From contig SUVR01000002.1 in assembly GCA_015061915.1 (NCBI GenBank), forward strand, positions 60,670-124,669: a DNA stretch of 64,000 nucleotides. The letters run 5' to 3'. The position numbers and the translations under genes were made by a program. Below, piece after piece: positions 2,610 through 62,924 of this stretch. The notes beneath the pieces were generated by a model, which saw only the letters and a program-made list of their open reading frames with translations, had not been told where the DNA came from and made no database searches. Origin of the DNA: Lentisphaerota bacterium (GTDB lineage: Bacteria; Verrucomicrobiota; Lentisphaeria; Victivallales; UBA1829). Within the stretch, counting starts at the first letter, position 1. Each line of letters starts with the position of its first letter.

Positions 2610-4817
2610 ATGCACAGCAATGATCTTGCCTCTGCAAAATGGATCCGTTATCCCGGCGATCCCGGTGCGGACAATACCTATACCCTTTTCCATACAACAT
2701 TTCAGGCGGACACCACAAAAAAAATCGTGTTGCGGCTTTCCGTTGCGGGCAACTACGCCTGCCGCATCAACGGCAGACTGGCGGCGTTCGGACAGTACAC
2801 GGACTTTCCCGCAAACAAGACTTATTCCGAAACGGATGTGACCGGATGCTGTCAGAACGGCTGCAACACGGTGGAGATCACCACCTATTTCGGCAGCAAC
2901 CGTTTTTCTTCCCATCTGGACGGGGAACCGGGGCTGATCGCTGCATTTTTCAATGGAGGGGATGTGGTTGCAGCAAGTTCCGCCGACTGGCTCTGCACCC
3001 GGGATGAACACTATCTTGCCGGACCGGATGTGACGATCCTTTCCGGCTCGTTGAACTACTGCTGGATCTTTGATGCAAACCGTGATCCGGGAACAGACCG
3101 CTGGAACCACGCGGAAGAAATCGCATACCGTCCGGTACGGCCGCGCCCCACGCCGCCGGTCGTTATGAAAGATTTTATTCCCGGCAAACTCATCCGTCAG
3201 GGAAAACTGCTGCGGAACAGTCCGGAAGAACTGCATGGAAAGCTGTACGAAAGCGACATCCGGGACCCGGAAACAGAAAGCAACGGGACTTATTTTCTCT
3301 ACGATCTGGGCAAAGAATATGCGGGTCTTTTCGCCATGGAACTGACCGCATCCGCCGGGACCGTGCTGGACATCGCCCACGGGGAATATCTGACCGACGG
3401 CGATCATGTGCGGGGGATCATTTTTGCCCGCACATTTGTGGACCGGTACACTGCAAAAGAGGGCACACAGACTTTCACACATGTGGTGCGCCGCGCCGCC
3501 TGCCGCTATATCGAAGTCCATGTGACCGGAGGCGTGGCGGACATTCATAAGATCGGGCTGATCTCCACCGAACTGCCGGGAGAAAGTATGGCGACACCCC
3601 CGTATGTTACTGCCGACCCGTTCTTCATGAAAGCCCATGAGATCTCTGCGGAGACCCTGCGGCTCTGCCTGCACGAAAAGTACGAAAACTGCCCCTGGCG
3701 GGAGCAATCCATCTGCACCTACGACGCCCGGAACCAGATGCTGTTCGGGTACGGGTTCTGGGGCAATTACCGGTACGCTGACGCTATGATCCGTCTCTTC
3801 GGGGAAAGTCTGCGCCCGGATGGCTTCATTGCGGTGGCGGCACCCGGCGGACTGAAAATCAGTATTCCCTCCTATACCTTCCAATGGATGGCGGCGGTGT
3901 ATGAATACACCCTTTATTCCGGCGACGAACAACTCTTTGCCGACCTTGCCCCGCAGATCCGCAAGATGATTGAAACAATCCTCGCCCGGAAAGCGGCGAA
4001 CGGGCTGCATATCCCGCCGGAAGAACATCTTTGGAACTATTGCGAAGCCCCGGCGTTGGAAAATATGCCGTACCCGCCCAACGCGTTTTACAATCTCTAT
4101 CTGGCAGAAGCACTGGAAGATATGGGGCAGATCTTCGGCGGAGAATATGGAGAAAGTCTCACGCAGCACGCAGCAGAACTGCGGCAGATCTGCGTGGAAG
4201 TATTTTATGATCCGGCAACCGGTTTATACGCAGACCACATCACACCGGAAGGTATCCGGAAGCAGTTCCACGGTCACATTCAGATGCTTTTCCTCGCCTG
4301 TGATGGCGTGGATAAAATCCGGCTGATGAATGCCATTCTGGATGGGGAAGTTCCGTTTCCGGCGCTGGGGGCAGTGCCCTATCTTATCAAGTACATCTTC
4401 CGGTACGGTTCGGCGGCAGAACGGAAGAAGCTGCATGAAAAGATCAAAAGTCATTACGCCATCATGCTGGATTCCCAGACCTGGTGGGAAGTCATCGACG
4501 GCATCCGGTACGGCGCCGGCAGCGGTTCGCTCTGTCACGGCTGGAGCGCGGCGCCCGCGTTCTACGATTCTTCATACATCCTCGGGATCACGCCCCTCAC
4601 ACCGGGTTACCGCACGTTCCGGTTCAGCCCCTATTCCGGCGGCATGGACCACGCCTCCGGCACGGTGGCAACGCCCCACGGAACGATCACGGTCTCCTGG
4701 CAGAAAACAGCTGAAGGTCTGAAAGCAGAACTGACCGTTCCCTCCGGTTGTGAAGCAGTCCTTATGCCCTATCCGGAAGAACCGGTGGCAGAACTTATCC
4801 TGCACCGGATCGAGTGA
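2610..4817 (+). CDS. six-hairpin glycoside hydrolase, alpha-L-rhamnosidase (GH78)-like
   Basis: 735 aa. The N-terminus (AKWIRYPG...) and the C-terminal GSLCHGWSAAPAFY motif resemble bacterial GH78 rhamnosidases. No signal peptide. The family assignment is from memory only. Confidence 0.55.
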   Translation: MHSNDLASAKWIRYPGDPGADNTYTLFHTTFQADTTKKIVLRLSVAGNYACRINGRLAAFGQYTDFPANKTYSETDVTGCCQNGCNTVEITTYFGSNRFSSHLDGEPGLIAAFFNGGDVVAASSADWLCTRDEHYLAGPDVTILSGSLNYCWIFDANRDPGTDRWNHAEEIAYRPVRPRPTPPVVMKDFIPGKLIRQGKLLRNSPEELHGKLYESDIRDPETESNGTYFLYDLGKEYAGLFAMELTASAGTVLDIAHGEYLTDGDHVRGIIFARTFVDRYTAKEGTQTFTHVVRRAACRYIEVHVTGGVADIHKIGLISTELPGESMATPPYVTADPFFMKAHEISAETLRLCLHEKYENCPWREQSICTYDARNQMLFGYGFWGNYRYADAMIRLFGESLRPDGFIAVAAPGGLKISIPSYTFQWMAAVYEYTLYSGDEQLFADLAPQIRKMIETILARKAANGLHIPPEEHLWNYCEAPALENMPYPPNAFYNLYLAEALEDMGQIFGGEYGESLTQHAAELRQICVEVFYDPATGLYADHITPEGIRKQFHGHIQMLFLACDGVDKIRLMNAILDGEVPFPALGAVPYLIKYIFRYGSAAERKKLHEKIKSHYAIMLDSQTWWEVIDGIRYGAGSGSLCHGWSAAPAFYDSSYILGITPLTPGYRTFRFSPYSGGMDHASGTVATPHGTITVSWQKTAEGLKAELTVPSGCEAVLMPYPEEPVAELILHRIE

Positions 4818-4919
4818 TTTTCTTCATATCTGGACTGCAATCTTTCATAAAAAATCGCCTTGAAATTCTGTCGATGGGTGCATATAGTATTCCCGTCAAA
4901 CAGAAAGGAGATTTACTTT

Positions 4920-6590
4920 ATGGATATTATGAAAGAGTTTCAGGCACGGAAGTTCGGTATGTTCATCCATTGGGGCGCATACGCCGTTCTGGGTGGACGT
5001 TACAAAGGGGAAGTGATGACGGAGATCGGGGAATGGGCGCAGTCCTACTTCCGGATCCCCAATGAGGAATACGCACAGATTGCCGCCACCTTCAACCCGG
5101 AAAAGTTCGATGCAGATGAATGGATGCGCAAAGCTGCCGCCGCCGGGATCAAATATATTGTCTTCACATCCAAGCACCATGACGGCTTCTGTATGTATGA
5201 CACGGCATATTCGGATTACAGCATTGTGAAGCATACGAAGTTCGGGCGCGACCCGCTGAAAGAACTGCAGCACGCCTGCGAAAAATACGGTATCAAGCTG
5301 GGGATCTACTACTCCCAGTATCTGGACTGGCACGAAGAACACGGAGGCGATCCCGGCGATTCCCATACAAAAAATGTGGCAGGGATGAGCTGGGGAAACG
5401 ACTGGGATTTTCCCCATACCGATCAGAAAGATTTTGAGATCTTCTTCCGTAACAAAGTCGTTCCGCAAGTCACGGAGCTGCTGACCAATTACGGCACGAT
5501 CTGGGAGTTCTGGTTCGATACCCCCATCGCCCAGGAGGCAAAATACAGCCGGGAACTGCGGGATCTGGTCAAACGCCTTCAGCCCCAATGCCTTATCAAC
5601 AGCCGGATCGGTCACGGTTGTCAGGACTTCATCGGGCTCGGCGACAACTGGATGCGTCACGGGAAGATGGATCTGGTGATCGAAGCCGCCGGAACCCTCA
5701 ACCGGACCTGGGGATTCAAGTTTGATGACCACGATTGGCTCAAGCCGGAACAGGTCATCAACACGCTGGTTTCTCTCACCGAAAATAATGCAAATTACCT
5801 GATGAATGTGGGACCGATGCCGGATGGTACGTTCACCCCGGAAACAGACCATATTCTCCAACAGATCGCCAACTGGATCGAAGACAAAAAAGATGCGATC
5901 CACGGTTCAGAACCATCCCCCTTCCCCCAAATCCTGCCGGACGCTTACTCCACTGTCAAAGGCAACCGGCTGAACTTGTTTCTCCGCAATGAGATGGAAC
6001 GTATGCTGCTTGCCGGGATCAACACAAAGATCTCTGCAGCAAGTGTTCCATTCCGGCAGGATGATTGCGGCAATGTGACGCTGGATCTGAAAGGCGTCTC
6101 CGGCTTTCTGCCGCTGGTCTCGCTGGATTTTGACGGCAAACCGGAGATCAGTCAGACCCTCACTGTGCAGAACGGTTCCATGCACCTTTTTATGGACTCC
6201 GGGATCTATGTGCCGGACACCCCGCCGTATGTCCTGTATGACGGCACCGCCGGCGACTGGAAAAAGCCGGAAGGAGCCATCCGCTGGGAAGTGGAAATTC
6301 CTGCCGCCGGGACTTTTGATGTGCTTCTCAAAGTCCAGACCGGTTATCTGGGACCGTGGAGCGGCGACCGGGTCATGGCGCTGGCTTTGGATGAAACACA
6401 GGAAGTCTCCGCCGACCTGAACAACGGCGAAGAAACGCCGCATCCGTACTGTACGATCCGGACCGTAAAGCTGGGCACGTTTCACATTGCAGAACCGGGC
6501 AGAAAGCTTTTGACGCTCCGTACTCTTTCCATCGGGGATGATGCAGCTGCAAACCTGCGGATAGCCTCGCTGATCCTGATCCGGCAGTAA
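4920..6590 (+). CDS. alpha-L-fucosidase (GH29)
   Basis: GH29 hallmarks FGMFIHWGAYAVLGG and HHDGFCMYDT are present. The ATG at 4920 is preceded by AAAGGAG. No signal peptide. Confidence 0.8.
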   Translation: MDIMKEFQARKFGMFIHWGAYAVLGGRYKGEVMTEIGEWAQSYFRIPNEEYAQIAATFNPEKFDADEWMRKAAAAGIKYIVFTSKHHDGFCMYDTAYSDYSIVKHTKFGRDPLKELQHACEKYGIKLGIYYSQYLDWHEEHGGDPGDSHTKNVAGMSWGNDWDFPHTDQKDFEIFFRNKVVPQVTELLTNYGTIWEFWFDTPIAQEAKYSRELRDLVKRLQPQCLINSRIGHGCQDFIGLGDNWMRHGKMDLVIEAAGTLNRTWGFKFDDHDWLKPEQVINTLVSLTENNANYLMNVGPMPDGTFTPETDHILQQIANWIEDKKDAIHGSEPSPFPQILPDAYSTVKGNRLNLFLRNEMERMLLAGINTKISAASVPFRQDDCGNVTLDLKGVSGFLPLVSLDFDGKPEISQTLTVQNGSMHLFMDSGIYVPDTPPYVLYDGTAGDWKKPEGAIRWEVEIPAAGTFDVLLKVQTGYLGPWSGDRVMALALDETQEVSADLNNGEETPHPYCTIRTVKLGTFHIAEPGRKLLTLRTLSIGDDAAANLRIASLILIRQ

Positions 6591-37705: not shown

Positions 37706-39613
37706 ATGAAAAATAACAAAATCAGGAGTAGAAAATTGCAGGAAGAAAATTATGATGTTGCAGTCGTTGGCGGTGGTCATGCTGCGGTGGAGGCGGCGCT
37801 CGCCGCTGCCCGCGCCGGTGCAAAAACACTGATGCTGACGATCAACCTTGACCATATTGCCCAGATGAGCTGTAACCCCTGTATCGGCGGGATCGCCAAA
37901 GGGATCGTTGTCCGGGAGATCGATGCTATGGGCGGTGCCATGGCGGCAGTTGCGGATGCTTCGCGCATCCAGTTCCGTATGTTGAACCGTACAAAAGGGC
38001 CCGCTGTGTGGTCTCCCAGGGAACAGTGCGACAAAGTCTGCTATCAGCGCGCCATGAAACGGGTACTGGAACAGACGGAAAATCTGACGATCCGTCAGGG
38101 AATGGCAATGGATTTTCTGGTCGATGAGACCAGCTCCGCCGTTTGCGGTGTGACGGATCAGTTCGGCAACAAGTTCCACGCCAAAGCAGTGGTTATGGCG
38201 ACCGGAACATTCCTCCACGGAAAAATGCACTACGGCTTGCAGAACTTCGCCGGCGGCAGAGCCGGTGATCCGCCCTCCTGCGAAATCTCCGTGGCATTGA
38301 AAGATAAACTGAAACTGAAGATGGGGCGTTTGAAAACCGGAACCCCGCCGCGTCTCATCAAAAACAGTATTGATTTTTCCAAAATGCGTGTTCAGGAGTC
38401 CGATGAATCGGAAGAATTTTTCTCCTGCTTCCCGGATGACTCCATTCATCCGCAGACCTCCAACCGGAATATGCCCTGCCATATGACCTACACCACGGCG
38501 GAGACCGCAGAATTTGTCAAAGCAAATCTGGATAAAGCCCCCATGTATAACGGGCTGATCGAAGGGATCGGCACACGGTACTGTCCCTCTTTTGAAGACA
38601 AAGTGGTGCGTTTTCCCGACCACGAACGGCATCTGCTCTATCTGGAACCGGAAGGGGAATATACGGATGAGTATTATGTGAACGGCATCTCCACCAGTCT
38701 TCCGCCGGAGATCCAGACCGCCATGCTCCATACCGTTCCCGGTCTGGAACACGCAGAAATCGCCCGTTACGCCTATGCGATCGAATACGACTTTGTCTAC
38801 CCCGATGAACTGAACCGCTCCCTTGCCATCAAAAAATGGAAAGGGCTGTACCATGCAGGTCAGATCAACGGCACCAGCGGCTATGAAGAAGCGGCAGTGC
38901 AAGGGTTGATTGCCGGTCTGAACGCCGCCCGGTACGCACAGGGAAAGAGTCAGATCGAGCCGGGTCGTGACGAAGCGTACACCGGGGTGCTGATCGACGA
39001 CCTGGTAACAAAAGAGATCGTGGAGCCGTACCGTCTGTTCACCAGCCGCGCCGAATACCGCTTGAGTCTGCGGCAGGACAACGCCGACTTCCGTCTTTCA
39101 GAAAAAGCCTACAACTGGGGCATCCTGCCTGAATACAAATACCGTCAGTTCAAAACCTATTCCGACCGCTGCGCCGAACTGGAAGAAGCCTTCAAAGCAA
39201 AACACATCCCCGGCGGCAGAAGCTGCTGGGATCTGCTGAAGGACTGCAACGGCAGATTTGAAGCGATCGATCCTGCCGTCATCCCCCTTGCCGATCTGGG
39301 TTACAACGGGGAAGATCCATTGGAACGCCGTGTGTTGCGGCAGCTGGTGATCCGTTCCCATTATGAGGGGTATCTGCGTCAGGAAGCGATCGCAGTCGGT
39401 CATCTCCGGGCATTGGAAAGCTGGCAGATCCCCGGCGAACTGGATTACAGTACCATTCCCGGACTTCGTAACGAATCCCGTATGAAACTGAAAAAAGTTA
39501 TGCCCGGAACACTGGCGCAGGCAAGCCGGATCGACGGCGTAACTCCTGCCGAGATCGCACTGCTGCAGGTACATATTGCCCGTCTCCGGAAAACACAGAA
39601 GGATGACGTCTGA
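37706..39613 (+). CDS. mnmG: tRNA uridine 5-carboxymethylaminomethyl modification enzyme MnmG (GidA)
   Basis: FAD motif YDVAVVGGGHAAVEAALAAARAG and conserved GidA segments (MSCNPCIGGIAKG, GTRYCPSFEDK, HAGQINGTSGYEEAA). The ATG at 37706 is used. The upstream part of the track ORF overlaps the divergent gene. Confidence 0.95.
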   Translation: MKNNKIRSRKLQEENYDVAVVGGGHAAVEAALAAARAGAKTLMLTINLDHIAQMSCNPCIGGIAKGIVVREIDAMGGAMAAVADASRIQFRMLNRTKGPAVWSPREQCDKVCYQRAMKRVLEQTENLTIRQGMAMDFLVDETSSAVCGVTDQFGNKFHAKAVVMATGTFLHGKMHYGLQNFAGGRAGDPPSCEISVALKDKLKLKMGRLKTGTPPRLIKNSIDFSKMRVQESDESEEFFSCFPDDSIHPQTSNRNMPCHMTYTTAETAEFVKANLDKAPMYNGLIEGIGTRYCPSFEDKVVRFPDHERHLLYLEPEGEYTDEYYVNGISTSLPPEIQTAMLHTVPGLEHAEIARYAYAIEYDFVYPDELNRSLAIKKWKGLYHAGQINGTSGYEEAAVQGLIAGLNAARYAQGKSQIEPGRDEAYTGVLIDDLVTKEIVEPYRLFTSRAEYRLSLRQDNADFRLSEKAYNWGILPEYKYRQFKTYSDRCAELEEAFKAKHIPGGRSCWDLLKDCNGRFEAIDPAVIPLADLGYNGEDPLERRVLRQLVIRSHYEGYLRQEAIAVGHLRALESWQIPGELDYSTIPGLRNESRMKLKKVMPGTLAQASRIDGVTPAEIALLQVHIARLRKTQKDDV

Positions 39614-40551
39614 TGTCGCAGGAAAGTCCGTTCCGGCAACTGTGGAAAAACCTGATGCGCCAGAAGTTTGCGCTCAGTTCGCTCATTGTCTGTGCGGCAT
39701 TTCTGCTGACAGCGATCTTTGCGGAGATCTATACGGGTGTTTGCCATTCCAAAGGGATCGAACCGGTCTATGAAAAAGTTGCTCCCGAAAAACGGAATAT
39801 GGAACCCTGCGCAGAATACTGGTTCGGCACAGACTATCTGGGGCGATCCGTTCTGACCAGAGCCGTTTTCGGAGCAAAAACTGCTGTCAAAGTGGGCGTG
39901 ATCGCTTCCTTTCTTGCGGTTCTGCTGGGAGTTTTTCTCGGCGTCTGGGCAGGTTATAAAGGAGGAAAGACAGACGATTTTGTGGTATGGATCTACAGCA
40001 CTTTCGCCTCTATGCCGACCCTGCTTTTCATTCTCGCCTTTTCTCTGCTCGTCTCCAAGGGCTTCCTCTTTCCGCCGCTGGAAAAAGCATTCGCCGCTCT
40101 TGCCGCCCTGCTCCGCACGGAACCGGGGATGCTCTCCGTCTATCTGGGGATCGGTATGACCGGCTGGGTGGCGCTCTGCCGGGTCGTCCGGGCGGAGACG
40201 ATGAAACTGCGTGAGACCCAATATGTTCAGGCGGCGAAGACGCTGGGCGCCAGTGACCGTCAGATCATATTCAAGCACATTCTGCCCAATCTTTCCCACT
40301 TGATCATCATTTACTTTACCATGCGTTTTGCCCTTGCGATCATGACAGAAGTGATCGTGAGCTATCTGGGCTTCGGTGCCCAGCGTGAGCCCAGTTGGGG
40401 GACCATGATCGCACAGGGGCAAAGTCAGCTCTGGCAGGGGATCTGGTGGGAGGCGGGTGCCGCCACGCTCTTTATGTTCATTCTTGTGCTGGCGCTCAAC
40501 CTGCTGGGAGATGCCCTGCGGGATGCCACCGATCCGAAACTGAAATTTTAA
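39613..40551 (+). CDS. ABC transporter permease, oligopeptide/dipeptide (OppC/DppC)-type, orphan
   Basis: WFGTDYLGRSVLTRAVFGAKTAV and a BPD_transp_1 core are present. The ATG overlaps the mnmG stop (TGATG). No cognate binding protein, second permease or ATPase lies nearby. Confidence 0.8.
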   Translation: MSQESPFRQLWKNLMRQKFALSSLIVCAAFLLTAIFAEIYTGVCHSKGIEPVYEKVAPEKRNMEPCAEYWFGTDYLGRSVLTRAVFGAKTAVKVGVIASFLAVLLGVFLGVWAGYKGGKTDDFVVWIYSTFASMPTLLFILAFSLLVSKGFLFPPLEKAFAALAALLRTEPGMLSVYLGIGMTGWVALCRVVRAETMKLRETQYVQAAKTLGASDRQIIFKHILPNLSHLIIIYFTMRFALAIMTEVIVSYLGFGAQREPSWGTMIAQGQSQLWQGIWWEAGAATLFMFILVLALNLLGDALRDATDPKLKF

Positions 40552-57590: not shown

Positions 57591-57622
57591 AAGCGACGAT
57601 CCTCTGAGGATACAAAACGCAG

Positions 57623-57657
57623 CGAAGCACAGCCAGACGGTTGTGCTTCGTTTTTTT
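57623..57657 (+). terminator. intrinsic terminator of pta
   Basis: CGAAGCACA-(10 nt)-TGTGCTTCG followed by T7. Confidence 0.8.
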
Positions 57658-57691
57658 GTAGAGATATTTTGTAAAAAAGCAGTAAAATGCC

Positions 57692-57720
57692 TTGTGAAAA
57701 GTGCGGTACGGGATTATAGT
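57692..57720 (+). promoter_or_regulatory. putative sigma70 promoter of the atypical ABC operon (TTGTGA-N17-TATAGT)
   Basis: TTGTGA at 57692-57697 and TATAGT at 57715-57720, 24 nt upstream of the ATG at 57744. Pattern only. Confidence 0.35.
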
Positions 57721-57743: not shown

Positions 57744-60386
57744 ATGAATTGGAAAAATATCTGGCAACACGGACTGATCAAGACTGCAGGGATCATGATC
57801 GCTGCAGTGTTTCTGCTTGCCCTGATGATCCGGGGGATCACCTTCCTTCTGCCATCAAACGGAGATGAGTCGCTTACCACTGTTCCACAGCAGATGACCG
57901 CCAAAAAACGGATCCCGCTGCGTTTGCAACGGGTTCCGGATCCCCGGCTGACCAGTCCCCGGAACAAGGCGGAACAGGCCGTTTTTCAGGCATTTCTGAA
58001 GAAGCACCCGGAGGTTGAAGTTTCGGCATTTTCCGGGATCACCATTGCCAACATTCAGGCGGAATCGGAGATCATGCTTGCCATCGCCGGAGGGAACGCG
58101 CCGGATGTTTTCACCTACATCAATTTCCGGATGTCCGATTCCTATATCCAGCAATCCTTTCTTTATCCGCTGGACGGCTTTCTGGACAGGGACAGATTTG
58201 AAGGAGGCAGAGACGCGTATCTGAACAGTCTTGCCAAACCGATCCGCCCGGTGGTAAAACGCAACGGTCCTGCCATTGGAGACAATGCGGCAGGCGAACA
58301 TATCTGGGCGATGCCCGGTCCGCTTGCCGTGCGTGTTCTGATGTGGCGGAAAGATCTTTTCCAAGAGGCTGGTCTTGATCCGGAACGCCCGCCGCAGGAC
58401 TGGGAGGAATTGCTCTCCTATGCGAAGTGTCTCTCCGATCCCGTTACGGAAAAATACGGTCTGAACATGGATGGCGGACCGCAGGCGGCGTGGGATTTTA
58501 TGGCATTTCTCTGGTCGGCAGGCGGCGAAGCCGTGATTCAGAATGAATCCGGGGAATGGATTGCAGCGTACGGGTCCCGTCAGGCAGCAGAAGCCCTTGA
58601 TTTTTATCTCCGGCTCGCCACGGAACCGTGGATCGATGCAGACGGCAAACAGCAGCGCGGCTATACGGTCCTTTCCGCCAATGCCGGTTCCGTCATGGAA
58701 CGGGATCTGTGGAACGAAGGGCGGATCGGGATGAAAGTGGGTTATCTGGACAGTCAGAACATGGCGGGGAATGTGGATATGGCGCTGATCGGGATCGCCC
58801 CTTTTCCGCCCCACAGACGGGGTGAAAAATCCGGCACGGAACTCAACGCGATCATGACCGGGATCTTTTCCGGGATCGAAGGCAGAAAAAATTCCGCAGG
58901 CGAATGGTGCTCTGCCGATGAGATCCGGGAGGCAGCCTGGCAATACATCCGTTTTATCAATTCGGATGAAGCCAGACAAATCTATGCAGATACTCTGGTG
59001 GCAAACGGTTTGGGCAGAACGCTCAGTCCGGAATATCTGCGGAAGTATGGCTATCCGGAATATCTGAAGTTTTTTCCGCCGGAACTGGAGGAAACGTTCC
59101 ACGATGCCGTACAGAACGGCAAACCGGAGCCTTACGGCAGAAATTGTCAGATGGTTTACACCTTTATGACCGAACCGCTGAACAAAGCACTTCAGCTTGC
59201 CCGTGATGCTGACCTGCCATCCGATCGGGAGAAACGGCTTGAGATCCTGCAGGAGATCCTGAAAAGCTCCGAACGGAAAACAACAGAACAGATGCTGGGC
59301 AATCTTTCGCCGGAAGAACGGGAATTCCGGAATCTCTGGGCGGGGATCGCTGCATTTCTGATCTGTGCGCTGTTCTGTCTGGCGCTCTATAAAATCTGGC
59401 AGATTTTTTCTCCGAAAGATGATTTCTCCGGCAAACAGAAGGGATGGCAATTCCGCAAAAATGCTGTGGCGTATCTCATCATGCTGCCGGCACTGCTGAG
59501 TATCCTGCTCTGGGTGTATTACCCCATGACATTCGGATCCATGCTGCTCTTTCAGGACTACCGGGTGACCGGCGGTTCGGAATGGACCGGGCTGAACAAC
59601 CTGGCAGATGTATTGTTCAGTGCGGATTGGTGGGCAAGTGTCTGGAATACGATGCGGTATATGTTCTGGATTCTGGGTCTGGGGTTTGTGGTGCCGATCA
59701 TCCTTGCCATCCTGCTGCAGGAGGTTTCTCACTGCAAGCTGCTCTACCGGACACTCTTTTACCTGCCGGCAGTGATGAGCGGGCTGGTGGTGATCTATAT
59801 GTGGAAACTTTTTTACCAGTCCGGACCGGCAGGGATCATGAATCAGGTACTGCAATCTCTTACGGATGGTCTGAACTTCATTCTTGTGCCGGCAGTCTCT
59901 CTTTTCGATCCGGAATTCACCGGGATCCCCTTTGAACCGGTGGCGTGGCTGGAAGACGCAAAATGGGCAATGCTTTCCTGTGTCCTTCCGGCGATCTGGG
60001 CAAGTGCCGGACCCGGCTGCCTCATCTATCTTGCGGCGCTCAAAAGTGTGCCGGAAGAAACCTATGAGGCGGCAGAGATCGATGGAGCAAACTTCTTCCG
60101 GAAAGTATGGCACGTAACACTGCCGACGCTGAAGCCATTGATCATTATCAATTTTGTAGGGGCGTTCATCGGTGCAGCTCAAAGCGGCGGGATGATCCTG
60201 ATCATGACCTACGGCAATGCAGAAACCAATGTGGCAGAACTGCAGATCTTCAAGGAGGCTTACACCAATCTGCGCTTCGGAACTGCCATTGGAATGGCAT
60301 GGCTGTTGGGGATCACCACGCTGTTCTTTACGATTTATCAGCTGCGACGGCTTTCCAATATGGAATTCAAGATAACAGGGAAATGA
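57744..60386 (+). CDS. fusion protein: TM anchor + family-1 extracellular solute-binding domain + TM + MalF-like ABC permease
   Basis: 880 aa. TM helix at residues about 12-36. SBP_bac_1-like domain at about 75-525 (AIAGGNAPDVF, WAMPGPLAVRVLMWRKDLFQEAGLDP...W(E/D)ELL). Second TM at about 531-553. A sugar-type BPD_transp_1 permease core runs from about 570 (AVAYLIMLPALLSILLWVYYPM ... EAAEIDGANFFRKVWHVTLPTLKP). Confidence 0.8.
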   Translation: MNWKNIWQHGLIKTAGIMIAAVFLLALMIRGITFLLPSNGDESLTTVPQQMTAKKRIPLRLQRVPDPRLTSPRNKAEQAVFQAFLKKHPEVEVSAFSGITIANIQAESEIMLAIAGGNAPDVFTYINFRMSDSYIQQSFLYPLDGFLDRDRFEGGRDAYLNSLAKPIRPVVKRNGPAIGDNAAGEHIWAMPGPLAVRVLMWRKDLFQEAGLDPERPPQDWEELLSYAKCLSDPVTEKYGLNMDGGPQAAWDFMAFLWSAGGEAVIQNESGEWIAAYGSRQAAEALDFYLRLATEPWIDADGKQQRGYTVLSANAGSVMERDLWNEGRIGMKVGYLDSQNMAGNVDMALIGIAPFPPHRRGEKSGTELNAIMTGIFSGIEGRKNSAGEWCSADEIREAAWQYIRFINSDEARQIYADTLVANGLGRTLSPEYLRKYGYPEYLKFFPPELEETFHDAVQNGKPEPYGRNCQMVYTFMTEPLNKALQLARDADLPSDREKRLEILQEILKSSERKTTEQMLGNLSPEEREFRNLWAGIAAFLICALFCLALYKIWQIFSPKDDFSGKQKGWQFRKNAVAYLIMLPALLSILLWVYYPMTFGSMLLFQDYRVTGGSEWTGLNNLADVLFSADWWASVWNTMRYMFWILGLGFVVPIILAILLQEVSHCKLLYRTLFYLPAVMSGLVVIYMWKLFYQSGPAGIMNQVLQSLTDGLNFILVPAVSLFDPEFTGIPFEPVAWLEDAKWAMLSCVLPAIWASAGPGCLIYLAALKSVPEETYEAAEIDGANFFRKVWHVTLPTLKPLIIINFVGAFIGAAQSGGMILIMTYGNAETNVAELQIFKEAYTNLRFGTAIGMAWLLGITTLFFTIYQLRRLSNMEFKITGK

Positions 60387-60389
60387 TTT

Positions 60390-62924
60390 ATGGCGATCAT
60401 CGGTAAAATAGAACGGAAAAGCTGGAAAGTGATCCTGTTGAGTGTGGTGATCCACCTGATCCTGATTCTGGGGGCAGCGACTATGGTCTATCCCCTGCTT
60501 CTGATGCTTTCCGGATCAGTCAAAAGTTCCGTCGACTTCAAAAACTTCACCCTCTTTCCTGAATACCTGCTCACAGAAAGCGATGGTCAGGAACTGCTGT
60601 TCAAAAAGTATCTGGCTACAAAGTATAACAACCAAGTTCTGCGTATGGCAGGCGATTTCAAAGATCCCGGTGCCACCTTTGATACCGTCGCGCCTCCATT
60701 CCGGAAAAATCAGGTGCGGCGTACTGCAGACTATCAGGATTTTCTGGCGGAATGTAAAAAAGAACTGCCGCATTACTGGTTCCTGCTCGGAATGGCATAC
60801 GAACCCGGGATAGACCCGCTTTCCCTGCGTAATTTCCGGGCATTTCTGCAAGACGGCCGGACCGATACCAACCGGGCGCTGCGTGAGCTGAACGAGGCGT
60901 GTAATACACAGTTCACCGATTGGAACGAAATCTCACTGCCGGCAGAAAACTTTTTCCTGCGGCGGAATTCCGGAGATTACAGTTCCGGTCTGCTGAAAAG
61001 GCTCCACGAATTCAAGTACAGCAGGCATACAGGATTGCTGGTCGAGATCTGGCCGGATATGGAGGGTGATTTCATTGCAATGCTGCGGCGGGACTGCGGC
61101 AGAAGTCTTGAGTCGATCAATCAATCTCTGCAAACGGATTACAATTCCTGGAAGGAGATCATTCTTCCGGAAAAAGTTCCGGCGGAAAATCCATTGCTTG
61201 CAGCCCGCTGGGAAGAATTTGTCAAAAACGAAATCAACGCTGCCTTTATCACGGTCGAACCCCGTCTTGCACTTGCTCCCTGGCGACACTTCCTGAAGGA
61301 AAAATATGGCGACCTCGCCACACTGAACAAGTCGCACGGCACGCAATATACCGATTGGAACAATATCCCGTTCAGCAACAATGTACCCCAATCCGGGATC
61401 CTGCGGATCGATTGGATGGATTTTGTCAGCGGTAATTCCACGCATAAAAAAATGTGGCATGATTTTCTGAAGAAAAAATATGCGAACCGTATCAGTAATC
61501 TGAACACAGAATGGGGTACGGGATTCCGTACCTTCGGCGAAATACCGTTCCATAATTCCCGAAGCGATAATGAGGCAGAAAACCGGGCAGCCGCAGAACT
61601 GGATGAATTGATCCGCCGCAACCGGAAGAAAGAGATCCCCGCAGAAGCGATCACGCTTCATACGCTGGCGAACCGGTACCGGGCATGGCTGAAAAACCAT
61701 TACTCCGGCAGTCTCGGAGCAGTGGCGAACGCGTACGGCATGGGCTGTAATACATTCCAGGAAGTAACATTGCAGGGAACTGCACCCGGTGAAAATAATC
61801 TGGCAGAACATTCAGACTGGCTGGAATTTCTGCGCACTCTGCCGCCGGAAAAGATCGGACTCCTCCGCAGCGCCGCCGGAAACTACCGGCAATATCTCCG
61901 GGATCTGTACACAAAAGATGGGGTCTGCGATTTTGATGCGATGAGCCGGGATTACGGCAAAACGATCACCGGTGAAAACAACATTCCCATCCACCTGGTC
62001 TGCCCGCCTTCCGGCAAGGCTCGCACCGACTATCTTCATGCGATCCGTAACGATCTCCTTCCCGGTCAATATGTTCTGCCGGATCCGCAAAAATACAGTT
62101 CGGACTGGCATTCTTTTCTGGAGAAAAAGTATGTCAATATCCGGGAACTGAACCGGAAATGGCGTCTCATTCCCCGGACTTTTAACGACTTTTCCCTGCC
62201 GACCCGGGAACACGAATGGCAGCTGTTGCAGGAAAATGCCGCCTTCCTGCGAAATGAATACTTGACCAGGAATTACAAAATGGTCTTCAGTACCCTGTTC
62301 ACCAACGGTAATGCGGCAGTCAATACATTGATCTATTGTCTGCTTTCGGTTCTGGCGGCACTGCTGATCAATCCGCTTTGTGCATACGGACTTTCCCGTT
62401 ACAAACCGGCTTCATCCTATAAGATCCTGCTCTTCCTTATGCTGCCGATGGCGTTTCCTGCCATGGTGCTGGGAATTCCGCAATTTCTGCTGATCCGGGA
62501 TTTGGGACTGCTCAATACCTTCGCCGCCCTGATCCTGCCGGGAATCGCAAACGGATATTCCATCTTTCTGCTCAAGGGATTTTTTGACAGCCTTCCGAAG
62601 GAGTTGTACGAATCCGCCGCCATCGACGGAGCCGGCGAATGGACCGTTTTCTGGCAGATCGGGATGCGCCTTTCCACACCGGTTCTGGCAGTCATTGCAC
62701 TGGGCTCCTTCACCGCCGCTTACGGCAATTTTATGATGGCATTCCTGCTCTGCCAGAAAAAAGATATGTGGACGATGATGGTCTATCTCTACCAACTGCA
62801 GCAGACCTCTTCCCCGGCAGTGGGATTCGCCGCCCTGGCAATCGCCGCGATCCCCACGCTGATCGTGTTCATCTTCTGTCAGAACATCATTATCAAAGGG
62901 ATCGTTGTCCCCACCGAAAAATAA
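60390..62924 (+). CDS. MalG-like ABC permease with ~585-aa repeat-containing extracytoplasmic insertion
   Basis: 844 aa. TM1 at residues about 12-40 (VYPLLLMLSGSVKS). The MalG-type core lies only in the last ~215 aa (ESAAIDGAGEWTVFWQIGMRLSTPV). Residues about 45-630 contain eight copies of an aromatic-x2-aromatic-L...Y...LN...I.(L/F)P module. Confidence 0.8.
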   Translation: MAIIGKIERKSWKVILLSVVIHLILILGAATMVYPLLLMLSGSVKSSVDFKNFTLFPEYLLTESDGQELLFKKYLATKYNNQVLRMAGDFKDPGATFDTVAPPFRKNQVRRTADYQDFLAECKKELPHYWFLLGMAYEPGIDPLSLRNFRAFLQDGRTDTNRALRELNEACNTQFTDWNEISLPAENFFLRRNSGDYSSGLLKRLHEFKYSRHTGLLVEIWPDMEGDFIAMLRRDCGRSLESINQSLQTDYNSWKEIILPEKVPAENPLLAARWEEFVKNEINAAFITVEPRLALAPWRHFLKEKYGDLATLNKSHGTQYTDWNNIPFSNNVPQSGILRIDWMDFVSGNSTHKKMWHDFLKKKYANRISNLNTEWGTGFRTFGEIPFHNSRSDNEAENRAAAELDELIRRNRKKEIPAEAITLHTLANRYRAWLKNHYSGSLGAVANAYGMGCNTFQEVTLQGTAPGENNLAEHSDWLEFLRTLPPEKIGLLRSAAGNYRQYLRDLYTKDGVCDFDAMSRDYGKTITGENNIPIHLVCPPSGKARTDYLHAIRNDLLPGQYVLPDPQKYSSDWHSFLEKKYVNIRELNRKWRLIPRTFNDFSLPTREHEWQLLQENAAFLRNEYLTRNYKMVFSTLFTNGNAAVNTLIYCLLSVLAALLINPLCAYGLSRYKPASSYKILLFLMLPMAFPAMVLGIPQFLLIRDLGLLNTFAALILPGIANGYSIFLLKGFFDSLPKELYESAAIDGAGEWTVFWQIGMRLSTPVLAVIALGSFTAAYGNFMMAFLLCQKKDMWTMMVYLYQLQQTSSPAVGFAALAIAAIPTLIVFIFCQNIIIKGIVVPTEK

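Follow-up and report, generated by a model that had tools for sequence, protein, structure and literature searches.

Locus and architecture of the MalG-like permease

We analysed a 64,000-nucleotide stretch from the genome of a gut Lentisphaerota bacterium (contig SUVR01000002.1, positions 60,670 to 124,669 of the forward strand, assembly GCA_015061915.1), hereafter the window. Two adjacent genes in the window encode the permease subunits of an ATP-binding cassette (ABC) importer. The second gene encodes a MalG-like permease with a very large repetitive insert in its first periplasmic loop, and the first encodes a MalF-like partner with a built-in substrate-binding protein (SBP) domain. The MalG-like gene has the following features, in which TM denotes a transmembrane helix:

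60390-62924 (+): MalG-like permease gene with the repeat insert, an 844-aa open reading frame (ORF) identical to GenBank MBE6407319.1
60423-60521 (+): TM1 (helix, residues 12-44), from hydropathy, the alignment with 2r6g_G and the AlphaFold2 model
62253-62921 (+): MalG-type membrane core (TM2-TM6), from Pfam, NCBIfam, the 2r6g_G alignment and the homologue alignment
62610-62669 (+): EAA coupling loop ESAAIDGAGEW (residues 741-751), from the homologue alignment

The GenBank record is named 'ABC transporter permease subunit [Lentisphaerae bacterium]'. Residues 676-837 matched Pfam BPD_transp_1 (PF00528) at 58 bits against a cut-off of 26.4, and E. coli MalG (2r6g_G) aligned with residues 8-60 (TM1) and 652-839 (TM2-TM6) at E 3.4e-16; the solved SugB and AlgM2 were also matched in the search of PDB sequences. 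Among the NCBIfam models, the C-terminal 200 residues were nearest to MalG, GlcU and UgpE, far under the equivalog cut-offs. Orthology to E. coli MalG was rejected, as the equivalog model for MalG (NF008231) scored 75 bits against a cut-off of 261. By these matches, the 844-aa protein is a MalG-type permease and not an orthologue of E. coli MalG. Residues E741, A743, D746, G747 and A748 of the EAA loop were invariant in 44 homologues.

By hydropathy, TM1 spans residues 14-32 and is followed by a TM at residues 642-660; about 600 residues stand between TM1 and TM2, where MalG has a short periplasmic P1 loop. The N-terminus was read as cytoplasmic because it carries four K/R within its first 13 residues. 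From homology to the solved MalG topology, with which the hydropathy and the AlphaFold2 helices agree, we infer six TM helices, a cytoplasmic N-terminus and a periplasmic TM1-TM2 loop. Pfam, hydropathy and the 2r6g_G alignment thus bear out the original prediction that this is a MalG-type permease whose first periplasmic loop holds a very large insertion, with the coordinates 60591-62267 (residues 68-626). We hold the identity and anatomy given here for the permease and its insert with high confidence.

Eight tandem three-helix units

The insert consists of eight tandem copies of a three-helix unit of 50-65 aa. The copies start at residues 69, 149, 228, 298, 356, 430, 499 and 573, with a spacing of 58-80 aa, and the unit boundaries and the support for each unit are as follows:

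60579-60764 (+): unit 1, residues 64-125, the most degenerate copy, helix C DYQDFL; AlphaFold2, family profile, masked-training test
60819-61016 (+): unit 2, residues 144-209; 24 bits in leave-one-out, AlphaFold2, family profile
61059-61229 (+): unit 3, residues 224-280, helix C RWEEFV; AlphaFold2, family profile at 63 bits
61260-61430 (+): unit 4, residues 291-347, helix C DWMDFV; 39 bits in leave-one-out, family profile at 63 bits
61443-61625 (+): unit 5, residues 352-412, a clade-specific extra unit; 41 bits in leave-one-out, family profile
61665-61832 (+): unit 6, residues 426-481, helix C DWLEFL; leave-one-out, family profile at 52 bits
61866-62048 (+): unit 7, residues 493-553, degenerate, with an enlarged A-B loop; family profile, masked-training test
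62085-62252 (+): unit 8, residues 566-621; 17.5 bits in leave-one-out, AlphaFold2, family profile at 39 bits

Helix A of the unit follows the pattern [FYW]-R-x-[FWY]-L-x-x-K-Y, helix B the pattern L-x-x-L-N-x-x-[YFW]-G-T, the long loop [FY]-x-S-[FW]-x-E-[IV]-x-L-P and helix C D-W-x-E-F-V-[RK]; the consensus of the whole unit is LYRKFLKKKYGGDLAALNKAYGTDYASFDEIPLPAEEPENPALAADWEEFVR. The highest-information positions of the unit profile (W47, F50 and R/K52) lie in helix C. The top-information positions in general are aromatic, aliphatic or proline, that is, residues of a packing type, and this character is suggestive of a structural role. The motif D-(W/Y)-x-(D/E)-F-(L/V), which had been taken for a second motif alternating with the main one, proved to be helix C of the same unit in both the AlphaFold2 secondary structure and the unit profile. 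Unit 8 continues into a conserved amphipathic helix ahead of TM2.

We evaluated the repeats statistically with leave-one-out hidden Markov models (HMMs) built on the 40-aa cores of the copies and compared with shuffled sequences. Copies 2, 4, 5, 6 and 8 scored 11-41 bits, with shuffle maxima below 9; copies 3 and 7 were marginal and copy 1 was not significant. With a full-unit profile trained on the family, every one of the eight copies was detected, at 29-63 bits. We then removed the circularity by masking, in the 44 homologues, the regions orthologous to copies 1 and 7 and retraining the profile; copy 1 still reached 12.0 bits (shuffle maximum 8.4) and copy 7 reached 21.4 bits (shuffle maximum 6.3). 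Across the leave-one-out, family-profile and masked-training scores, the predicted eight-fold array is therefore supported in every copy, with units 1 and 7 degenerate. We found no repeat at the DNA level, so the duplications are old, and a recent tandem duplication of units was ruled out.

Predicted fold of the insert

The permease was modelled with AlphaFold2 from the 44-sequence alignment. The predicted local distance difference test score (pLDDT) was above 90 over residues ~70-630 and the predicted template modelling score (pTM) of the whole chain was 0.77; the membrane core was less confident, as expected for a single subunit modelled alone. The insert was predicted to form about 26 helices with a few strands of two or three residues and no barrel strands, and the order helix A, helix B, loop, helix C occurs eight times along it. 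The insert is an all-alpha periplasmic domain of ~580 residues, built of eight tandem units and non-catalytic.

Foldseek searches of the whole permease model against the PDB matched the membrane core only (SugB, MalG), and for the insert yielded only local matches of 80-114 residues to TIM-barrel glycosidases at E >1. A search against viral predicted structures returned nothing meaningful for the permease model. TPR, Sel1, HEAT and Armadillo families gave no Pfam match at E up to 1 and no PDB fold match at E <1, and likewise no Pfam match at E up to 1 and no PDB fold match to the insert was obtained for carbohydrate-binding module (CBM) or lectin families. As a whole, the insert is without a match in the solved structures (PDB) and curated families (Pfam/NCBIfam) searched.

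Origin of the unit in glycosidase barrels

Pfam Glyco_hydro_42 (PF02449), a glycoside hydrolase (GH) model, matched the permease at E 2e-15 and 57.5 bits, against a gathering threshold of 21. The match was confined to profile positions 136-210 of 376 and fell in three stretches of the permease; unit 4 lies inside the best of them (residues 280-347). We then searched a 43-sequence unit profile against all PDB sequences, with the following matches, the enzyme classes being those named by the depositors:

6y2k, 4oif/5dfa, 6lvw, 1kwg and 3tts: beta-galactosidases (GH42); E 1e-7 to 2e-5
6ptm: uncharacterised protein; E 2.6e-7
3voc and 1b90: beta/alpha-amylase and beta-amylases (GH14); E 8e-7 to 7e-3
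7vkx: beta-1,2-glucosyltransferase; E 3e-5
4bq4: beta-agarases (GH50); E 8.5e-5
5gsm and 5gsl: exo-beta-D-glucosaminidase; E 4e-4 to 5e-3
9whd: GH167 enzyme; E 6.5e-3

The second-best match (6ptm_A, residues 315-347) belongs to a 773-aa protein named 'uncharacterized protein'. In 4oif, residues 171-228 align with the whole unit, the DWxxFV helix included, and in the T. kodakarensis glucosaminidase the unit aligns at residues 205-253 (205-251 in 5gsm). The latter enzyme, GlmA (5gsl/5gsm), has been assigned to GH35; its beta-4 ends in the acid/base Glu179 and its beta-7 bears the nucleophile Glu347 (PMC6566704). Because the aligned segment follows Glu179 and precedes Glu347, the unit corresponds to a helical excursion just past beta-4. 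The profile matches show that the unit is homologous to the post-beta-4 helical excursion of (beta/alpha)8 glycosidases (GH42, GH35-like, beta-agarases and beta-amylases). In the permease this glycosidase-derived unit has been detached from the barrel and amplified. A likeness to the GH42 segment 'W..WL..KYG....LN..WGT.FWS' had been suggested for the repeat, and both the Pfam match and the solved GH42 enzymes (E about 1e-7) agree with it.

The same Pfam score, together with the name 'beta-galactosidase' that NCBI gives to close relatives (e.g. MBO5202698.1 and the cluster representatives P0025 and P0028), could be taken to mean that a GH42 beta-galactosidase, functional or degenerate, has been fused into the permease as its insert, making it a membrane-tethered glycosidase. 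We consider this virtually untenable. Only the limited range of the profile given above is matched, and repeatedly; the matched segment sits between the acid/base and the nucleophile and includes neither; the AlphaFold2 model is all-alpha; the GH42 trimerisation and C-terminal domain families were not reported by Pfam at E up to 1; and Foldseek with the whole model gave glycosidase matches that were local only. A catalytic GH42 identity was therefore rejected. The 'beta-galactosidase' names are a systematic misannotation, because the GH42 model matches the repeated sub-domain above its threshold, and its firing on these permeases can inflate counts of carbohydrate-active enzymes (CAZymes) in metagenome surveys.

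The SBP-fused partner and the two-gene module

The gene immediately upstream encodes the partner permease:

57744-60386 (+): MalF-like permease gene, 880 aa (GenBank MBE6407318.1)
57912-59294 (+): SBP domain of the partner, flanked by TM helices at 57753-57848 and 59310-59408

The start codon of the 844-aa permease gene lies 3 nt past the stop codon of the partner, whose record is named 'extracellular solute-binding protein'. Pfam placed SBP_bac_1 at residues 75-411 and BPD_transp_1 at residues 670-864, and the full layout comprises a TM at residues 4-35, the SBP domain at ~57-517, a TM at 523-555 and a six-helix core of the MalF/AlgM1/SugA type at 574-877. In the AlphaFold2 model the SBP domain (57-517) is an alpha/beta fold at pLDDT 85-95, with a short K/R-rich loop after the second TM. 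Foldseek superposed it on oligosaccharide-binding proteins at TM-scores of 0.7-0.77, the ligands of which are cycloalternan, cello-/beta-gluco-oligosaccharides, maltodextrins and trehalose/maltose, and the membrane part was nearest to AlgM1 and SugA in the PDB sequence search. The partner is accordingly an SBP-fused permease, as had been predicted. We found no copy of the repeat unit in it. Each of the two permease subunits thus bears a giant domain in its own first periplasmic loop. The two TMs that flank the SBP domain and the six-helix core give the partner an eight-TM layout, which was kept in all paired loci with a loop of 459-533 aa.

We examined the pairing of the two genes by tblastn, taking as informative those loci with at least 2.6 kb upstream of the repeat-bearing gene. 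An SBP and a MalF-type transmembrane domain were encoded immediately upstream on the same strand in all 65 informative loci (65/65). Conversely, each of four distant SBP-fused partners (4/4) had a unit-bearing MalG directly downstream (837, 623 and 620 aa, and one cut by the contig end). The repeat-bearing MalG is therefore the second half of an obligate two-gene module with the SBP-in-loop MalF-like permease. In Planctomycetes bacterium syqfu (CP087563.1; locus L069, 7163-9951) two ORFs take the place of the partner, one of 579 aa for the SBP and one of 334 aa for the permease. They are separated by 45 nt and read in different frames, which reflects either a genuine split or a frameshift.

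The length of the insert was uncorrelated with that of the SBP loop of the partner (Spearman -0.15, p 0.33), and we dropped the idea that one compensates for the other. With both membrane cores controlled for, the distances of the insert still followed those of the SBP (partial Mantel r 0.48, p 0.001); this co-divergence is a weak signal, since heterogeneous rates could by themselves give rise to it.

Family size, spread and gene neighbourhoods

The architecture is not unique to the genome of the window; it belongs to a large multi-phylum family already in the databases, unrecognised or misnamed. A word-indexed protein search returned 71 relatives of 553-864 aa with the PF00528 and PF02449 architecture, and a species-level scan, with one genome per species, confirmed at least 465 relatives among the 600 pattern matches listed. 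By record titles, the best 80 loci comprised about 39 from Lentisphaerota, 12 from Cloacimonadota, 7 each from Planctomycetota and Kiritimatiellota, 6 from Verrucomicrobiota, 2 from Delongbacteria and a few others. The cultured Victivallis vadensis DSM 14823 and Lentisphaerota of the human gut and the rumen are included in the family.

An exhaustive search of 1.84 billion cluster representatives (50% identity clusters) with the unit profile yielded 2465 proteins at E up to 1e-3, 323 of them at E up to 1e-10. Among the best 150 representatives, 94 were complete permeases; most of these measured 610-640 aa and had 4-5 detected units, with a maximum of 9 matched stretches. Homologous permeases carry 2-9 units each. 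Unit 5 is missing as a clean block from the ~775-aa class of homologues; the family evolves by gain and loss of whole units. The frequency of the majority residue was about 0.5 in the insert and 0.87 in the membrane core.

No other gene was conserved beside the pair across the loci, including any outer-membrane or peptidoglycan-related gene. In the orthologue group of the window no neighbouring glycosidase was conserved, and the contexts were variable and mostly unrelated. A MalK-type ATPase adjoins the pair in several loci; the MalK/MsmK-type ATPase adjoins the pair in some genomes and is encoded elsewhere in others, including that of the window. In loci of the Cloacimonadota type (L018, L036, L028, L037, L092 and others) the pair is followed by genes for a GH38 alpha-mannosidase, a GH20 hexosaminidase, a GH130 phosphorylase and a CBM9-like protein; this gene content suggests that the subfamily may import N-glycan-type oligosaccharides. 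One other locus has GH4 and a GntR regulator beside the pair. In V. vadensis DSM 14823 (locus L070, 2980-7263) a gene for a 1427-aa DUF4838/GH67 N-terminal-like protein lies directly upstream of the pair and is itself preceded by a gene for a protein with a prepilin-type N-methylation motif. The 1427-aa protein may be a substrate-processing partner.

The unit in contractile injection system baseplates

The unit has a second host. Pfam Tail_P2_I matched 13 of the 150 best representatives of the unit-profile search, and in the full-length Tail_P2_I proteins (about 1000 aa) this domain lies at ~530-690, with 2-3 units C-terminal to it (e.g. P0135, P0145, P0155, P0160, P0169, P0183, P0201 and P0202). 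An alignment-based scan also found an example on an IMG/VR viral contig (L082, 10001-12931), where the unit-bearing gene follows those for the sheath, contractile injection system (CIS) tube, GPD hub, spike, gp25 and Baseplate_J. By this gene order, it stands where a contractile injection system encodes its wedge. The CIS wedge proteins (Tail_P2_I; gp7/Afp12-like gene position) are like the permease in that tandem copies of the unit occur outside any glycosidase, but they are soluble parts of a phage-tail-like particle with 2-3 copies and no membrane or transport context. The unit is thus an autonomous structural module outside enzymes and transporters, and a sub-domain fragment of a TIM barrel has turned into an independent repeat unit that is reused in a transporter and in the baseplates of contractile injection systems.

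Comparison with known systems

The membrane core resembles that of E. coli MalFGK2-MalE, being MalG-type with six TMs and an EAA loop. E. coli also offers, in the P2 loop of MalF, a precedent for a large periplasmic domain in a permease loop that serves the binding protein; in the maltose system MalF P2 serves free MalE. The big domain of MalFGK2 is in the P2 loop of MalF, whereas the insert described here is in the P1 loop of the MalG-type subunit, and the binding protein here, unlike MalE, is covalently built into the partner. MalF P2 is also far smaller than the ~580-aa insert and is not a helical repeat in the 2r6g structure. Importers of the GlnPQ/OpuA type carry the substrate-binding domain covalently on the permease, where it acts in cis, and the partner likewise has a substrate-binding domain fused to a permease subunit. 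However, the binding domains of GlnPQ and OpuA are appended to one end of the permease and the SBP here is internal, between two TMs; the pair also differs in its oligosaccharide, CUT1-type substrate class and in having a second permease with a giant extra domain.

With respect to its unit, the insert is homologous to GH42 and related (beta/alpha)8 glycosidases (GlmA, beta-agarases, beta-amylases and GH167), in which the unit occurs as a single copy in a catalytic barrel; the insert, in contrast, has eight tandem copies and no barrel, catalytic Glu or GH42 accessory domains. TPR, Sel1-like, HEAT and Armadillo domains, which are typically protein-binding scaffolds, are similar in being large all-alpha domains assembled from short helical units in tandem. 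The insert differs from them in the lack of any Pfam match at E up to 1, in the make-up of its unit (three helices and a long conserved loop) and in being traceable to glycosidase barrels.

The family departs twice from the solved ABC sugar importers, with an SBP inside the loop of one permease and a giant helical repeat in the other. It represents a CUT1 ABC importer in which both the accessory domain and the arrangement of the subunits are unprecedented. The original prediction could not match the insert to any described system, and we likewise found none in the PDB, in Pfam/NCBIfam or in the literature searched, which included a 2026 review on glycoside transporters and mostly lay outside the subscription journals. 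To our knowledge, glycan uptake is poorly understood in Lentisphaerota, Planctomycetota, Verrucomicrobiota, Kiritimatiellota and Cloacimonadota.

Possible role of the insert

Both roles originally suggested for the array, the capture of glycans and docking, are reasonable hypotheses. By analogy with MalF P2, we tentatively favour, at slightly less than even chances, the view that the array acts as a non-catalytic scaffold in the periplasm, cradling the cis-tethered SBP or keeping it in position above the translocation pore. The eight units would form a rigid scaffold anchored in the membrane at both ends; this scaffold would pack against the tethered binding domain and hold or guide it over the pore, and the gain or loss of whole units would fit the array to different binding domains and cargo sizes. 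The presence of the unit in the CIS baseplate wedge protein indicates that it works as a building block outside enzymes, and the strict pairing with a tethered SBP somewhat favours docking or scaffolding over the capture of glycans; the co-divergence of insert and SBP adds weak evidence for a scaffold. Several points weigh against a scaffold. LpqY-SugABC and other CUT1 importers dock their SBP with no accessory periplasmic domain, which means that the mechanism does not require a scaffold. The mirror-tree signal could reflect a faster evolution of both periplasmic domains than of the cores, and the moderate conservation of the insert also fits a ligand-binding surface that determines specificity. 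Furthermore, no MalK-type ATPase or glycosidase adjoins the pair in the window.

An array that serves as a lectin-like solenoid, concentrating or aligning long oligosaccharides in the periplasm and handing them to the SBP or the pore, is rather unlikely in our view but a serious rival to the scaffold. Carbohydrate-active enzymes are the source of the unit, aromatics are abundant in the insert (W 2.6%, Y 4.0%, F 5.5%), loci of the family adjoin GH38, GH20, GH130 and CBM9-like genes, and the alginate importer AlgM1/AlgM2 is among the top solved relatives of both membrane cores. Tuning to the substrate could account for the variation in unit number and for the moderate conservation, and a capture platform predicts the same pairing and co-divergence; two domains that bind the same glycan would be expected to pair strictly and to co-diverge just as much, which again tells against the scaffold. 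However, the matched glycosidase segment lies between the two catalytic Glu positions, and we know of no description of the post-beta-4 segment of these glycosidases as a sugar-binding site. The conserved aromatics recur at the same unit positions in every copy, as in a repeating hydrophobic core, CBM and lectin similarity was absent from the Pfam and PDB searches above, and the baseplate wedge protein uses the same unit in a setting where scaffolding is at least as plausible. Alternatively, the array might reach peptidoglycan, an outer-membrane component or neighbouring transporters, and so position or oligomerise the importer as an envelope spacer or anchor. The size of the domain, its confidently predicted extended all-alpha architecture, the confinement of the family to diderm phyla (the PVC group, Cloacimonadota and Delongbacteria) and a number of units that varies as for a length-adjustable spacer are in keeping with this. 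Yet the domain is tied to the inner membrane at both ends (TM1 and TM2), the pTM of the whole chain suggests a compact, defined arrangement and not a free rod, no envelope-related gene is conserved beside the pair, and the strict pairing with an SBP-in-loop partner would be left unexplained; we regard such a spacer as improbable.

Between them, the SBP of the MalF-like subunit and the eight-unit array of the MalG-like subunit may enclose a periplasmic chamber over the pore, although we consider such a self-contained 'caged' importer unlikely. If true, the scaffold would gate access to the binding site or thread long chains of glycan into it. No solved ABC transporter takes up oligosaccharides in this way, and such a mode could help to explain the uptake of complex glycans by bacteria of the PVC group and Cloacimonadota.

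Surroundings of the pair in the window

Two features lie between the upstream gene and the pair:

57621-57652 (+): terminator-like hairpin with a 14-bp stem and a T-run, after the upstream pta-like gene
57659-57720 (+): two overlapping sigma-70-like promoter matches before the first gene of the pair, which are matches to the consensus only

The pta-like gene encodes a member of the PTA_PTB family, and a convergent gene of the prismane/Hcp family follows the permease gene. The hairpin is strong and delimits the two-gene operon on its upstream side. Since hairpin and promoter-like hexamers come before the pair and the convergent gene after it, the two genes form a bicistronic unit of their own, flanked by unrelated genes (DUF1846, Pta and EamA). 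Some 53 kb farther upstream, an alpha-L-rhamnosidase-like gene (2610-4817, +) stands beside an alpha-L-fucosidase gene (4860-6590, +; Pfam Alpha_L_fucos), with no evident link to the pair. The window also encodes a BPD_transp_1 permease of ordinary size (39613-40551, +; 312 aa) with no insert, which indicates that the organism has conventional ABC permeases as well.

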